From positions 1 to 64,000 of the IMG/VR virus record IMGVR_UViG_3300032219_002227: a DNA stretch of 64,000 bases; one strand, 5' to 3'. The first letter of the stretch is position 1. Each line of letters starts with the position of its first letter. Made by a program: the position numbers and the translations under genes. This DNA comes from a virus (taxonomy: Duplodnaviria; Caudoviricetes). The notes under the pieces are model-generated. The model was given only the letters and a program-made list of their open reading frames with translations. It was not told where the DNA came from and ran no database searches. This document shows positions 20,433 to 57,253 of the stretch, one piece after another.

Positions 20433-20451
20433 TCCGTATATATTTATTACC

Positions 20452-21118
20452 GAAGATACATGACAGGTCTTCACCTATTAATTAACCGCATACCTTAGGG
20501 ATGCACAAATAAAAATAAAATGAGTAAAACTACAGACGTGTTCGTAGTAACGAATGCAAACAGCACATTAACAGGCGGACTTACCTTAACAGGAGGCGCT
20601 TATAGTACAAACACTTATAACACAGGAGGTTATATTACTAATAGCCTCGTTAATTACCCCACTTATAATGACTTTTGGAAATTTGATGAAGAATTTGATC
20701 TTCTTTGGAAATCATTCTTCTCAAATGAAGGCTACAGACCAATCAAAGAAAAAGTAGCAGGCGTACCTTGCGACATCCAAGAAACAGATAATGGTCTACG
20801 TATTGAACTCGCAGCAGTAGGCCTTGAAAAATCAGATATTGATATTATTGTTGATTCAGAAACACTTCGTGTTGCTTATCGTAAGAATGATAAGGAAGAG
20901 GAAGCAGATAAGAATGAGTACAGATATCTATTACGCTCAATTAAAAAATCAAGTTTTGATCTTGCTTGGAAAATTTCAAGCAAATATGAATTAGCTAAAT
21001 TAGAAGCTAAATTAGAAAAAGGATTATTAACTTTGGATATTCCATTTGCAAAGGAAAATAAACCAACAAAGGTTACGATTAAATAAGTTTTGAAAACCGA
21101 AGACCTGTCATTATCTTC
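20452..21118. repeat. Inverted repeat pair enclosing hsp20
   Basis: GAAGATACATGACAGGTCTTC (20452-20472) and GAAGACCTGTCATTATCTTC (21099-21118): 20 bp plus one bulged C. Confidence 0.9.
20520..21086 (+). CDS. Small heat-shock protein (Hsp20)
   Basis: DIQET, ELAAVGLEKSDIDI, AKLEKGLLTLDIP, C-terminal VTI. Confidence 0.9.
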   Translation: MSKTTDVFVVTNANSTLTGGLTLTGGAYSTNTYNTGGYITNSLVNYPTYNDFWKFDEEFDLLWKSFFSNEGYRPIKEKVAGVPCDIQETDNGLRIELAAVGLEKSDIDIIVDSETLRVAYRKNDKEEEADKNEYRYLLRSIKKSSFDLAWKISSKYELAKLEAKLEKGLLTLDIPFAKENKPTKVTIK

Positions 21119-21123
21119 ATTTT

Positions 21124-21315
21124 ATGGAAACATTAGTTATACAAAAAGAAGCAAACTGGGATAGGATTGCTTATTTGAAACTAGTAAATGATAAAGTAGT
21201 ATTTGATGATTCATGGGAAGAATATGGTCCTGTTGAATTTGATTTATCAATATTAGAAGAAGCAATTTTAAAACATAAACAAAAAATAGAAAATGAAAAT
21301 AAAACCACTGCATAA
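21124..21315 (+). CDS. Hypothetical protein
   Basis: ORF directly after a promoter-like element. Confidence 0.65.
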   Translation: METLVIQKEANWDRIAYLKLVNDKVVFDDSWEEYGPVEFDLSILEEAILKHKQKIENENKTTA

Positions 21316-21583
21316 TCACATTGTGATTAAACAACAAGACGAGACAGAAACAATGTATGGAAACATTGTAGTACCTGATATGGGTAAAGAAAAACCACTT
21401 ATGGGTGAAGTAGTAGCTGTAGGACCTGGAATGTATACAATTACAGGAACTTGGATTGATACTAATGTTCGAAAGGGTGAAATTGTAGTATTCCCAGCTT
21501 TTGGAGGAACTAAAATGACTGTTGAAGGTGAAGAATACATTGTAATGAAAGAACAAGATTTGTTAGCAATTTTAGAAAAATAA
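21293..21583 (+). CDS. groES: Co-chaperonin GroES
   Basis: MKIKPL, GEVVAVGPG, EQDLLAIL. Confidence 0.95.
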   Translation: MKIKPLHNHIVIKQQDETETMYGNIVVPDMGKEKPLMGEVVAVGPGMYTITGTWIDTNVRKGEIVVFPAFGGTKMTVEGEEYIVMKEQDLLAILEK

Positions 21584-21586
21584 TAT

Positions 21587-23197
21587 ATGAGTAAAATAAT
21601 TAAATTTGATCGCGACGCAAAAGAAAAACTACAGACCGGTATTAAAAAAGTACACGATGCTGTAACGGTTACAATGGGTCCTTTTGGACGTAATGTATTA
21701 ATTGAAAAAGAACATGGACAAGTAGCCTCAACTAAAGATGGTGTTACTGTTGCTAAAACCATTACATTGGAAGATCCAATCGAAAATATGGGTGCAACTG
21801 TAATTAAACAAGCAGCATCTAAAACAGTTGACCAAGCAGGTGATGGTACAACTACATCTACATTGTTGGCTTATAGTATTGCTAATCAAGCACTTGAATT
21901 GACTTCAAAACCATCAGTTAATGTTACTCAAGTAAAATATGGTATTGAAGCTGCTGTTAGGAATATTGTTAGTGAACTTAAATCAATGTCTGTAGACATT
22001 ACTGATGAAAAGCAAATCAAACAAATTGCTACACTCTCAGCTAATGGTGACGGAGAAATTGGAGAATTAGTAGCTACAGCTATCGATAAAGTAGGCAGAG
22101 ATGGTATTGTAACAGTAGAAGAATCACGTTCAGGTGAAACATCACTTGAAGTAGTAGAAGGTCTTCAATTTGACCGCGGTTACAAATCACCTTATATGGT
22201 GACCGATAACAATACAATGCAAGCAGTACTTACAGATGCTTCTATTTTGTTATATGATGGTAGAATTAGCACTATAAAAGATCTATTACCTATACTTGAA
22301 CGTATCTCCTCAGACAATAAATCATTATTGATTGTAGCTGAAGATATTGATGGAGAAGCACTTTCAACACTCATTGTAAATAAAATGAGAGGTATCTTAA
22401 AAGTAGTAGCTGTTAAAGCACCTGATTTTGGAGATCGTAGAACACTTATTCTTGAAGATATTGCTATTGTAACAGGCGGTACTGTAATTTCACCACAAAA
22501 AGGAATGAAATTAGATAAGTTTAATATGTCTTGGTTAGGTACTGCTAGAACTGTTACGGTAGGCAAAGATACAACTACGATCGTTGATGGTAAAGGCGAA
22601 ACTGAAAAAATTGATGCTCGTATTAATGAATTAAAAGCTCAAATTGATACTAATAATTCACCATATGAAGTAGAACGTTTACAAGATCGTTTAGCTAAGA
22701 TTGTAGGTGGTGTAGCTATTATTAATGTTGGTGGTGGTACTGAAGTTGAAATGAAAGAAAGAAAAGATCGTATTGATGATGCACTCCAAGCAACTAAAGC
22801 TGCACTTGAAGAAGGTATTGTACCTGGTGCTGGTATGGCTTTATTTAATGCTAGAAATGCTATTAATAATAGAGATAATAGTGATTCTGGATTAGGTGGT
22901 CAAATTGTATTTAAAGCATGTTCAACTCCACTTAATAAAATTTTAACTAATGCTGGTGAAGATTATTACGAATGGGTTTCAATTCTAAAAGATAGAAATG
23001 CTGTTCCTGATATTGTAGGAGACAGAACAGTAGATGCTTTCAAATCAGGTATTATCGATCCAACTAAAGTAGTACGTTGTGCACTTGAAAATGCAGCTGC
23101 AGCCGCCACTACATTATTGATGACAGAATGTGTTATTTATAATAAACAAGAAGATAAGAAAAAAGAAGAGATTGATATGGCAGGATTTGGAATGTAA
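21587..23197 (+). CDS. groEL: Chaperonin GroEL
   Basis: TMGPFGRNV, TKDGVTVAK, AGDGTTT, FDRGY, KAPDFGDRR, GIIDPTKVVR. Confidence 0.97.
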   Translation: MSKIIKFDRDAKEKLQTGIKKVHDAVTVTMGPFGRNVLIEKEHGQVASTKDGVTVAKTITLEDPIENMGATVIKQAASKTVDQAGDGTTTSTLLAYSIANQALELTSKPSVNVTQVKYGIEAAVRNIVSELKSMSVDITDEKQIKQIATLSANGDGEIGELVATAIDKVGRDGIVTVEESRSGETSLEVVEGLQFDRGYKSPYMVTDNNTMQAVLTDASILLYDGRISTIKDLLPILERISSDNKSLLIVAEDIDGEALSTLIVNKMRGILKVVAVKAPDFGDRRTLILEDIAIVTGGTVISPQKGMKLDKFNMSWLGTARTVTVGKDTTTIVDGKGETEKIDARINELKAQIDTNNSPYEVERLQDRLAKIVGGVAIINVGGGTEVEMKERKDRIDDALQATKAALEEGIVPGAGMALFNARNAINNRDNSDSGLGGQIVFKACSTPLNKILTNAGEDYYEWVSILKDRNAVPDIVGDRTVDAFKSGIIDPTKVVRCALENAAAAATTLLMTECVIYNKQEDKKKEEIDMAGFGM

Positions 23198-54896: not shown

Positions 54897-54928
54897 AAGA
54901 AGGGATTGGTAGAAACCAATCCCTGTTT
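54895..54928. terminator. Terminator hairpin between convergent genes
   Basis: AGGGATTGGT-AGAA-ACCAATCCCT (54901-54924), A-rich left flank and GTTT right flank. Confidence 0.85.
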
Positions 54929-54946: not shown

Positions 54947-55111
54947 TTAAGCTTTCTTCTTGGAAAAGATAGACCATGCAGCACCAACTAAAGTCATTAC
55001 ACCACCAATAACCTCTGCAGAGAGATTTTCATCAATTAAACCTTTAGTTACGATAATACCACCAATAAAGGTTAAAGCATGTCTAACAAGTCCTAATACT
55101 TGATCTTTCAT
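54947..55111 (-). CDS. 54-aa 2-TM holin-like protein (not in ORF track)
   Basis: MKDQVLGLVRHALTFIGGIIVTKGLIDENLSAEVIGGVMTLVGAAWSIFSKKKA; own promoter motif and terminator. Confidence 0.8.
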   Translation of the reverse strand: MKDQVLGLVRHALTFIGGIIVTKGLIDENLSAEVIGGVMTLVGAAWSIFSKKKA

Positions 55112-55399: not shown

Positions 55400-55400
55400 T

Positions 55401-55559
55401 TGTCAGGTGGTGAAAAGTGTGCACACACTGGTATACACACCCACTCGTCTCGTGGGCGCTGAAAACGAAACAGGTATTTAGGTATGGGTTGACCACAAAG
55501 CCGGCTTAATTTGCCAAATACTAAATCGCAGCGTGAAGGTTCGACTCCTTCCCTGACAG
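55401..55559 (+). ncRNA. tRNA-like RNA with expanded D-loop, non-canonical anticodon loop and 78-nt variable arm
   Basis: Acceptor TGTCAGG/CCTGACA; T-arm GAAGG-TTCGACT-CCTTC; stem CCCAC-TCGTCTC-GTGGG. Confidence 0.8.
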
Positions 55560-55561
55560 CC

Positions 55562-55800
55562 TGAACACAGTGAAGTCTAAAAAATTAGTCCGCAGGCCAC
55601 GGGATCGAAAACTCAGGAATGCCTCTTAACAATGCACAAATCTCCTCTAAATCGTTAGTTAGCGGTGTAAAGTAACTCCACTGGAGAATAGAGTTACAAA
55701 TAAGGTTGATTGGGATAGGGTTGCAGGGTAATGCCTGACCTGATAGGATAGTAACGCCAATCATAAAAGCAGATGTCCACGCACCCATCTTCTGCTTTCC
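55562..55800 (+). ncRNA. Putative structured ncRNA of unknown class
   Basis: GC-rich, no convincing ORF; stems GTAACTC/GAGTTAC, TGATTGG/CCAATCA, AAAGCAG/CTGCTTT. Confidence 0.5.
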
Positions 55801-55805
55801 TAAAT

Positions 55806-55892
55806 GCCCTTGTGGTGGAATAGGTAGACACGCAGGACTTAAAATCCTGTTCGCTGAAAAAGCGAGTGCGGGTTCGATTCCCGCTGGGGGCA
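55806..55892 (+). tRNA. tRNA-Leu (anticodon TAA), CCA not encoded
   Basis: CAGGA-CTTAAAA-TCCTG anticodon arm, long variable arm, GCGGG-TTCGATT-CCCGC. Confidence 0.95.
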
Positions 55893-55893
55893 C

Positions 55894-56205
55894 ATTAGTT
55901 ACTGTTCTTTGACATATAAGGAGAAACAAATTATGGAAACACTATCATTCATTTTAGGGATAGCGTTTGTGGTGGTTATTGCTATTGCAGTAGTTGCTGT
56001 TTACGCTTTCGTTAGGGTAAATAAAGTAAAAGAATATTTAGAAAGTACAGAAAGGCACTTTAGTCATGAAATAAGTAATGTTTATCAAGAAATGGCAAGT
56101 CGTACTGATGATATTACTCGTTCAATGGACTCACGTTTTGATAAATTAGAAAATAAATTAACAAATAACAAATAAAAAATAAATAAGTCAAAGACAGTAA
56201 CTAAT
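55894..56205. repeat. Inverted repeat pair enclosing a small membrane-protein gene
   Basis: ATTAGTTACTGTTCTTTGAC (55894-55913) and GTCAAAGACAGTAACTAAT (56187-56205): 19 bp plus one bulged T. Confidence 0.9.
55933..56175 (+). CDS. Single-TM plus coiled-coil protein (ATG at 55933 preferred over TTG at 55909)
   Basis: METLSFILGIAFVVVIAIAVVAVYAF...; AAGGAG at 55918-55923. Confidence 0.78.
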   Translation: METLSFILGIAFVVVIAIAVVAVYAFVRVNKVKEYLESTERHFSHEISNVYQEMASRTDDITRSMDSRFDKLENKLTNNK

Positions 56206-56215
56206 ATTTATATAT

Positions 56216-56539
56216 ATGGCATGTCATTATTTAAATTTAAAAAATGCAGACGAATTCTACATGAAAATGAGGAATAGAGACGCTGACATTATTTTAAAAA
56301 TGGCTAAATGTGTATTAAGTGCATTTAAAAGAGGTAAAGATCAAATTGATATATTTGATATTACCTTCAAAAATATGGATCAACTTACATTTACTATTGA
56401 TAAATCTCAATATAAAGAGTTACTTAGTAATTGTATGAAGGATTTAATTGAAATGGAGGAATATGAATTGTGTGCTGAAATAAAGAAGATTTTGGAGGGT
56501 AAGAAAAGAAGTCGTAAATTAAAAGATAAAGTTCTTTAA
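56216..56539 (+). CDS. Protein with C-terminal UVR-like motif (paralogue of 53031..53330)
   Basis: LIEMEEYELCAEIKKIL. Confidence 0.65.
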   Translation: MACHYLNLKNADEFYMKMRNRDADIILKMAKCVLSAFKRGKDQIDIFDITFKNMDQLTFTIDKSQYKELLSNCMKDLIEMEEYELCAEIKKILEGKKRSRKLKDKVL

Positions 56540-56544
56540 CATAT

Positions 56545-56929
56545 GGGGATAACCGGTATCGATCCGGATGTAGAGGTAATACTACATGCAGGCATTTGAG
56601 TATACTGCCTTAGAAGATACTAAACAATAAACGCTGAAGAATTATCTTCATTCACTTTCGAAGATGCAATGTCTTTCGTTGGTGCTGATTACGCAGTAGC
56701 TGCCTAATCAAACACGGGTAAGTAACCTAGGAACAGAACTACTTTGAGTATTCACGATCGACTCATTAAATAAGGACTGTGGATTAGTTTCTTGATGTCA
56801 TAAATCAAGTGGTGGAAACGACCATAACGGTCAGCCCTACTGATCAGATTCGTTCAGATCTAAGCATGTGAGACGTTAGTATTATTGTCTCTTTCGGAGA
56901 CGTGGGTTCGAATCCCACTATCTCCACCA
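56545..56929 (+). ncRNA. ssrA: tmRNA
   Basis: GGGGATA/TATCTCC-ACCA acceptor with G3.U70; GTGGG-TTCGAAT-CCCAC T-arm; tag frame 56633-56707 AEELSSFTFEDAMSFVGADYAVAA*. Confidence 0.95.
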
Positions 56930-57223: not shown

Positions 57224-57253
57224 AGGCAACCAGAAATGGTTGCCTTTTTTTTT
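57224..57253 (+). terminator. Intrinsic terminator
   Basis: AGGCAACCA-GAAA-TGGTTGCCT plus T-run. Confidence 0.92.

Follow-up and report, generated by a model that had tools for sequence, protein, structure and literature searches.

A conserved leader-trailer helix around a membrane-protein gene of phage tRNA arrays, and its possible role in pairing the ends of an mRNA

Bacterial and phage mRNAs whose 5′ and 3′ ends naturally pair with each other are limited, to our knowledge, to a handful of single cases, and the arrangement is otherwise an engineering trick. In mitochondrial tRNA punctuation, and with the t-elements of plant mitochondria, tRNAs or tRNA-like structures that abut an mRNA define its ends via RNase P and RNase Z. 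These systems are organellar and have no end-pairing helix. In the rrn transcripts of E. coli, a long RNA body is enclosed by complementary flanks that pair in a leader-trailer helix (>17 bp), with a boxA-type motif in the leader that is modelled as a tether, tRNAs within the transcript, and flank sequences that vary while their pairing is kept (PMC10250234). The antitermination complex bridges the 5′ and 3′ ends of rRNA and boosts RNase III processing (bioRxiv 10.64898/2026.03.17.712431). In the hbs mRNA of B. subtilis, which is small and strongly translated, a long-range duplex between the 5′UTR and the 3′UTR modulates the access of RNases (PMC5737220). Engineered RNAs with paired termini, in which flanking inverted repeats of 21–57 bp enclose a large loop, have a longer half-life in E. 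coli, and their abundance is unchanged by RNase III (PMC1635301). Lastly, suhB and lambda nutL/N carry a boxA-type motif a few nucleotides 5′ of the Shine-Dalgarno sequence of a protein gene; in suhB the distance is 6 nt, and the Nus complex represses translation (PMC5725501).

Leader-trailer helices, boxA, tRNA punctuation and paired termini are thus known parts. Here we describe a phage element in which they appear to be combined around a single gene; in the literature we found only the analogues cited above, and no description of a natural phage mRNA combining those parts. In contrast to the rrn transcripts, the element encloses a translated ORF of 243 nt and not a stable RNA. Its boxA-like motif is located within the pairing strand, whereas that of rrn lies ~20 nt upstream of the strand. 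Moreover, the phage helix is far shorter than the 30–44 bp proposed for 16S rRNA, and RNase III cleavage is hypothetical in the phage. The hbs duplex differs from the phage helix in that it is 14 bp long, partly overlaps an RNase Y site, is not at the termini, and has neither tRNA punctuation nor boxA. The engineered RNAs are synthetic, GC-rich and non-coding, whereas the phage element is natural, conserved and ORF-enclosing, with a ribosome-binding site that is open in predicted folds. suhB and lambda nutL/N, finally, have no complementary 3′ arm, and their outcome is translational repression together with Rho-dependent termination.

The window that we analysed consists of the first 64 kb of a complete viral record of 173,246 bp with direct terminal repeats. 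The genome has ~30% G+C, and nearly all of its genes are on the plus strand. (One of the very few minus-strand genes in the window, at 54947–55111, encodes a 54-aa holin of the Pam3 gp28 family (PF23987, E 8e-19) and has its own terminator at 54924–54901.) The family B DNA polymerase shares 35% identity with its counterpart in Microcystis phage Mel-JY01, which makes the phage a distant member of the T4 superfamily.

The element occupies positions 55894–56205 of the plus strand. A first-pass annotation had claimed arms of 19 bp, with one bulge on the 5′ arm, around an ORF with transmembrane (TM) and coiled-coil segments, and direct reading of the sequence confirmed this. The left (5′) arm at 55894–55913 reads ATTAGTTACTGT(T)CTTTGAC, where the T in brackets is bulged, and the right (3′) arm at 56187–56205, which begins 11 nt past the stop codon, reads GTCAAAGACAGTAACTAAT. 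The arms form 19 Watson-Crick pairs around a loop of 273 nt, the 5′ arm having a single bulged T (55905 or 55906), and they are located in both untranslated flanks of one predicted transcript. Minimum free energy and centroid folds of the mRNA, computed with or without the tRNA, retain the helix (z ~ −3.6) and leave the Shine-Dalgarno sequence and the AUG unpaired. When the 64-kb window was scanned for inverted repeats that have no more than one defect and enclose 30–1500 nt, a pair around the hsp20 gene (20 bp) and the 55894–56205 pair (19 bp) ranked first and second. Repeats of at least 19 bp are expected by chance at 0.10 per window, as determined with 100 dinucleotide-preserving shuffles, 10 of which had any such repeat. 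All arms of the two pairs are situated in scarce intergenic DNA, and each pair exactly brackets one ORF. As the annotation had also stated, the sequences of this pair and of the hsp20 pair have nothing in common.

The ORF has homologues at 47 loci in IMG/VR, on contigs from freshwater samples. When the 60 nt upstream of the ORF were compared with the 60 nt downstream, 44 of these loci had a near-perfect stem, and a helix of 16–22 bp occurs at the same place in ~30 distinct related viral contigs (25 bp at one locus), in keeping with the length of an rRNA stalk (~17 bp or more). The stem of the relatives ends 13–24 nt 5′ of the ATG and resumes 0–25 nt 3′ of the stop codon. Divergent subfamilies (L023–L034, L035, L036/L040 and L047) have wholly different arm sequences, with the pairing kept. 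We performed a covariation analysis on an alignment of 18 loci (A1), in which 88% of cells are paired, as against 29–58% with the 3′ partner shifted along. Nine pairs have changed on both sides (36 cells, with changes such as GC to AU or UA to CG), and the observed covariation values were reached by none of 500 shuffles. RNAalifold recovers the long-range helix from this alignment unaided. The outer 10 nt of the left arm are variable among relatives, and its inner part is invariant; the partners of the invariant CTTTGAC are only GTCAAAG, GTTAAAG, GTTGAAG, GTTGGAG or GTTAGAG. Scored without credit for G-T, the transition mismatches comprise 12 cases of G-T or T-G and none of A-C or C-A, an asymmetry that is predicted by a helix in the sense transcript, but not by a protein-bound DNA repeat. 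Additionally, the orientation of the ORF is that of the flanking tRNAs in all 47 loci. The compensatory changes, the G-U-only mismatches and the constant gene orientation bear out the earlier proposal of selection on RNA structure as opposed to a recombinase site, and the comparative data indicate that selection maintains the helix as an RNA structure of the sense strand. On the other hand, the bulge that had been likened to the one at hsp20 is incidental in the membrane-protein family, since most relatives have perfect helices.

The enclosed ORF (55933–56175 including the stop codon, plus strand) encodes a protein of 80 aa with an N-terminal TM helix and a coiled coil (phrog_7885). Its start is most likely the ATG at 55933, behind the Shine-Dalgarno sequence AAGGAG (55918–55923, plus strand). 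The variability of its codon positions follows the order 3>1>2, and the protein family has a METLSFILG-transmembrane segment at the N-terminus and an invariant DSRxDKLENKL at the C-terminus, with a hypervariable coiled coil between the two. Judged by its sequence, the ORF is genuinely coding. The helix therefore encloses a conserved protein-coding ORF, where an rRNA-type stalk would enclose a stable non-coding RNA. In an alignment of the ORF family (A2; window positions 55933–56172), the TM segment is near-invariant and is conserved also at the nucleotide level, and the central coiled coil has a length polymorphism of 15 residues. Protein family searches with the ORF returned only topology-level look-alikes (DUF948, YtxH and the N-terminal region of RNase Y), and no homologue of the ORF was found among GenBank phages, nor in one genome per species of 185,579 bacterial and archaeal species.

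The left arm is abutted by the 3′ end of a tRNA-Leu(UAA) gene with no encoded CCA, which ARAGORN predicts at 55806–55893 (plus strand) and Rfam at 55806–55892 (RF00005, 56.5 bits). As the tRNA ends at 55892 or 55893, depending on the prediction, the left arm begins 1–2 nt past the discriminator. A tRNA thus directly adjoins the predicted mRNA boundary, as in tRNA punctuation. In the relatives, the gene is likewise located within tRNA arrays: the offset between the 3′ end of the upstream tRNA (Leu(UAA), Leu(UAG), Ser, Gln or Thr) and the left arm is −1 to +2 nt, and that between the end of the right arm and a downstream tRNA (Met or Glu), where there is one, is −1 to +4 nt. The positions of the arms relative to the flanking tRNA ends thus imply that the helix exactly fills the space between neighbouring tRNA processing sites. 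It had been proposed that the left arm is located where tRNA 3′ processing makes a new 5′ end, and this proposal gains strength from the same geometry at four different tRNAs and several tRNA-like elements. The latter are T-arm and acceptor sequences that ARAGORN did not call and that in several loci lie directly 5′ of the left arm (L004:2864–2963 and L007:2864–2963; also just 5′ of the arm in L003, L005, L011, L015 and L043). These uncalled elements have T-arm sequences of the GGTTCGAATCC type and acceptor 3′ strands, one being ~100 nt long with a long extra arm, and they abut the left arm at the same spot as ordinary tRNAs do elsewhere. Upstream of tRNA-Leu in the window, a stretch of ~400 nt (55400–55805) is relatively GC-rich and has no plus-strand ORF; its sole Rfam match is a sub-threshold one to abiF at 55615–55646 (30.5 bits, gathering score 37). 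This stretch probably consists of one or more unclassified structured RNAs.

The gene order of this stable-RNA transcription unit is tRNA-Leu, membrane-protein ORF, second ORF, tmRNA, terminator. The tmRNA gene is at 56545–56929 (plus strand), and the first canonical terminator after it is at 57224–57245; a scan for consensus terminators found none on the plus strand between 55894 and 57223. A boxA-like motif, GTTCTTTGACA (55904–55914, plus strand), makes up the inner half of the left arm and ends 3 nt 5′ of the Shine-Dalgarno sequence. It matches 10 of the 11 positions of GYTCTTTAANA, the consensus of the NusB/NusE site boxA, which is gamma-proteobacterial and may not be that of the host (PMC5725501). 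Across the 18 aligned relatives, GTTCTTTGACA is invariant save at position 2, which is T or C and corresponds to the degenerate Y of the consensus. A second boxA-like motif, GTTCTTTAACA (56531–56541, plus strand), matches the consensus at 11/11 positions and is located 3 nt 5′ of the tmRNA; it overlaps the end of the ORF at 56216–56539. The same perfect copy is found 5′ of the tmRNA in three relatives (L002, L013 and L014), and further boxA-like copies are located 14–38 nt 5′ of tRNA-Phe, tRNA-Leu and tRNA-Met (L018–L020 and L034). The putative NusB/NusE site in the left arm could explain why this arm is frozen while the right arm adapts via G-U pairs. Such a site would make sense in this unit, because an untranslated tRNA-tmRNA unit must resist Rho, and the boxA-like motif appears to tie the element to rRNA-style transcription and processing. 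However, equally strong helices without boxA are present at hsp20, L035, L036/L040 and L047, which implies that the helix has a function independent of boxA. The left arm contains TTGACA, which we considered as a −35 box for sigma-70. We rejected this candidate: there is no −10 element at 16–18 nt downstream, and the start site would land inside the ORF, tRNA or tmRNA. A full-text literature search for the motif as a sequence string found unrelated primers only.

The right arm had been said to adjoin the next promoter motif, and in fact overlaps it by 2 nt: the promoter-like motif of the next gene, ATATTTAT, is at 56204–56211 (plus strand), and the next ATG, at 56216, lies 4 nt past it. Intergenic DNA is 4.2% of the genome, and 42 of the 58 plus-strand copies of ATATTTAT are intergenic, always 5′ of genes; the reverse complement has only 13 copies genome-wide. 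Copies in the window include those at 2351, 12265, 20440, 26190, 52136, 52700, 56204, 57532, 59031 and 60390. In five genes (56216, 77210, 82075, 114976 and 117370), the ATG is 4–5 nt past the motif, which suggests leaderless mRNA starts. The motif is thus promoter-like in its behaviour.

The hsp20 helix (left arm 20452–20472, right arm 21099–21118, plus strand) encloses the hsp20 ORF at 20520–21086 (PF00011), and its left arm begins 5 nt past a copy of ATATTTAT at 20440–20447. The arm is thereby located at a predicted transcription start, its offset of 5 nt from the motif being the ATG offset of the five genes above. The arm positions in both families thus suggest that the 5′ arm begins at the predicted RNA 5′ end, which would be created by tRNA processing in the membrane-protein family and by initiation at hsp20. 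The hsp20 helix is kept in 16 relatives with compensatory changes (GACAGG to GATAGG or GGTAGG, with matching partners). In most relatives it is imperfect at one conserved site, 7–8 bp from the outer end, the imperfection being a bulge, a 2x1 internal loop or a mismatch; this site is that of the bulged C at 20459 in the window and the equivalent position in L050–L063. The helix of the membrane-protein gene has no conserved defect of this type. The hsp20 gene is followed by two small ORFs and then by a GroEL-type chaperonin (PF00118, E 3e-67; the region spans 20520–23197), so the phage appears to carry a small chaperone cluster.

The two cases had been taken as signs of a general mRNA end-pairing mechanism. 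This idea did not hold up: such a helix is found at just these two genes of the 173-kb genome, and the gaps with other ORFs in tRNA arrays are without pairing. An intergenic-pair scan of the whole genome found only hsp20 and matches between AT-only motifs, with no other GC-containing helix; the 55894–56205 pair escaped it only because its left arm was hidden by a spurious antisense ORF. A genome-wide RNAduplex scan and a scan that allowed G-U pairs had too much noise for further families to stand out. We also scored 45 distinct inter-tRNA gaps of 150–1800 nt in the relatives. Gaps with this ORF scored 17.5–19.5 and all others at most 12, the 95th percentile of the controls being 11.5. End pairing thus appears to be restricted to two gene families, hsp20 and the membrane-protein gene. 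A 21/22 inverted repeat with a loop of 359 nt was noted in the late or structural region outside the window (G000:C1:143516–143537 and 143897–143918).

We interpret the unit at 55894–56205 as a tRNA-punctuated mRNA whose ends are paired by a conserved leader-trailer helix of 16–22 bp, in the manner of the rRNA stalk, an interpretation to which we assign an even chance of being right; the helix would probably both define and protect the mRNA ends. A tRNA 3′ endonuclease of the RNase Z or RNase E type would cut the upstream tRNA and thereby produce an mRNA 5′ end 0–2 nt before the first pair. In relatives with a downstream tRNA, RNase P would produce a 3′ end 0–4 nt past the last paired base, and in other contexts initiation and termination would place the RNA ends at the helix base. 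The paired ends would mask the 5′ monophosphate from 5′-end-dependent RNases and present no 3′ tail to exonucleases, and the Shine-Dalgarno sequence and AUG would remain open just inside the helix. A duplex with unpaired ends of 0–2 nt (5′) and 0–4 nt (3′) should block 5′-end-dependent decay, as by RNase E or RNase J, and decay by 3′ exonucleases. The boxA-like site in the 5′ arm could, via NusB/NusE, tether this arm to the polymerase while the 273-nt body is transcribed, and the helix of the tethered arm would then close once the 3′ arm emerges, as proposed for rRNA. Several considerations complicate this interpretation. In the window, a canonical terminator is found only past the tmRNA and no tRNA follows the right arm, so the mRNA 3′ end is undefined here. 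We also count against the paired-end interpretation that other ORFs of the same tRNA arrays do without such a helix, and that a perfect duplex of 16–22 bp is plausibly an RNase III substrate as well. Furthermore, a requirement of NusB/NusE for single-stranded boxA would put the helix in competition with the Nus complex, and the element might then act as a switch, not simply as protection. A circular mRNA is without support, as Pfam searches of the phage genome found no RNase III and no RNA ligase; a search for the T4 Rnl1 family found no match in the phage genome, but as it found none in any control genome either, it does not bear on the question.

Plausible RNase III cleavage leads to a tentative alternative, which we consider rather unlikely: the helix could be an rRNA-style stalk that host RNase III cuts, freeing the mRNA from the tRNA-tmRNA precursor and leaving a shorter paired stub. 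With the same reservation, the stalk would close and be cut during transcription with the help of boxA and the Nus complex. Because a paired stub would be left, this alternative is compatible with paired ends. The helices of 16–22 bp are within the range for the rRNA leader-trailer helix (>17 bp, PMC10250234), a boxA-like motif is present in the leader strand with a perfect copy 5′ of the tmRNA, and the antitermination complex of rRNA boosts RNase III processing (bioRxiv 10.64898/2026.03.17.712431). A double-stranded tRNA trailer would also be a poor RNase E site, such that the separation of tRNA and mRNA may need another enzyme, and the hsp20 helix retains a bulge or internal loop at a conserved position. 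The RNase III sites of phage T7 likewise keep a bulge or internal loop. However, a cut inside the helix would not need the exact abutment of the helix ends on tRNA ends, several helices are merely 16 bp long, no phage-encoded RNase III was found in the Pfam search of the genome, and paired termini of 21–57 bp are unaffected by RNase III in E. coli (PMC1635301). It is quite unlikely, in our estimate, that the helix instead serves to mask boxA, whereby NusB/NusE on boxA would repress translation during transcription and keep the polymerase termination-resistant until the 3′ arm sequesters boxA, frees the Nus factors and licenses the finished mRNA. Such a switch would fit the gap between boxA and the Shine-Dalgarno sequence (3–4 nt here, compared with 6 nt in suhB), the right arm, which is an exact anti-boxA whose variation keeps the pairing by G-U, and the fresh boxA 5′ of the next stable RNA, the tmRNA. 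It would not account for the equally strong helices without boxA (hsp20, L035, L036/L040 and L047), and the outer, non-boxA half of the helix also covaries, which argues that the whole helix is under selection. Additionally, Nus binding is only predicted here, from a gamma-proteobacterial consensus that may not be the host's.

The T-rich sequence past some right arms raises the question of a long-range intrinsic terminator or insulator, in which the 3′ arm, on emerging from the polymerase, would bind the unpaired 5′ arm and, with the T-rich tail, halt transcription downstream of the gene; we regard this as highly improbable. There are ~4–6 T in the 8 nt past the right arm where no tRNA follows, and hsp20 is followed by the tail ATTTTAT; in loci with a downstream tRNA, the spacer reads AAAA, AAAT or ATT. 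Paired termini also gave apparent termination in E. coli (PMC1635301). However, in a genome of ~70% A+T, T-rich tails are weak evidence, transcription has to continue past the element at loci flanked by tRNAs and ahead of the tmRNA here, a polymerase modified at boxA would resist, and a 273-nt loop is at odds with the short-loop GC-rich hairpin and U tract of an intrinsic terminator. A role of the arms in DNA, as terminal inverted repeats of a mobile cassette or as crossover sites of an invertible segment, is barely conceivable. Inverted repeats around one gene are typical of such elements, and the location of the cassette beside different tRNAs in different phages means that either the cassette or the tRNA arrays have been rearranged. 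Against this, the mismatches are G-T only (12 to 0), as for a sense RNA, none of the 47 loci has the opposite orientation, the flanks (GCAC and ATTT) hold no target-site duplication, and the encoded product is an 80-aa membrane protein. The arm sequences moreover differ among subfamilies and from those of hsp20, which excludes a single recombinase site.

It is also conceivable, although we consider it unlikely, that the mRNA is handled altogether like a stable RNA: NusB/NusE on boxA would tether the 5′ arm and block the ribosome-binding site, and the 3′ arm would then capture boxA, free the Nus factors and license translation only of a complete, end-protected mRNA, perhaps trimmed by RNase III. 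If this is true, genes in tRNA/tmRNA operons would have an expression logic of their own.

The structure of the element is computationally solid, and it is from this structure and its context that we infer the function, including the cleavage sites, stabilization and Nus binding. Its design has been kept, with covariation, across dozens of uncultured T4-superfamily phages, where the element is aligned to the nucleotide with predicted tRNA processing sites and joined with a boxA-like motif. It may therefore offer a tractable system for studying how an mRNA persists within an operon of stable RNAs, whether looping by Nus factors aids long-range RNA helices outside rRNA, and how end pairing, RNase III and translation initiation interplay. 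The arrangement of tRNA, paired-end ORF and tRNA could also provide a compact natural part for stable mRNA expression.
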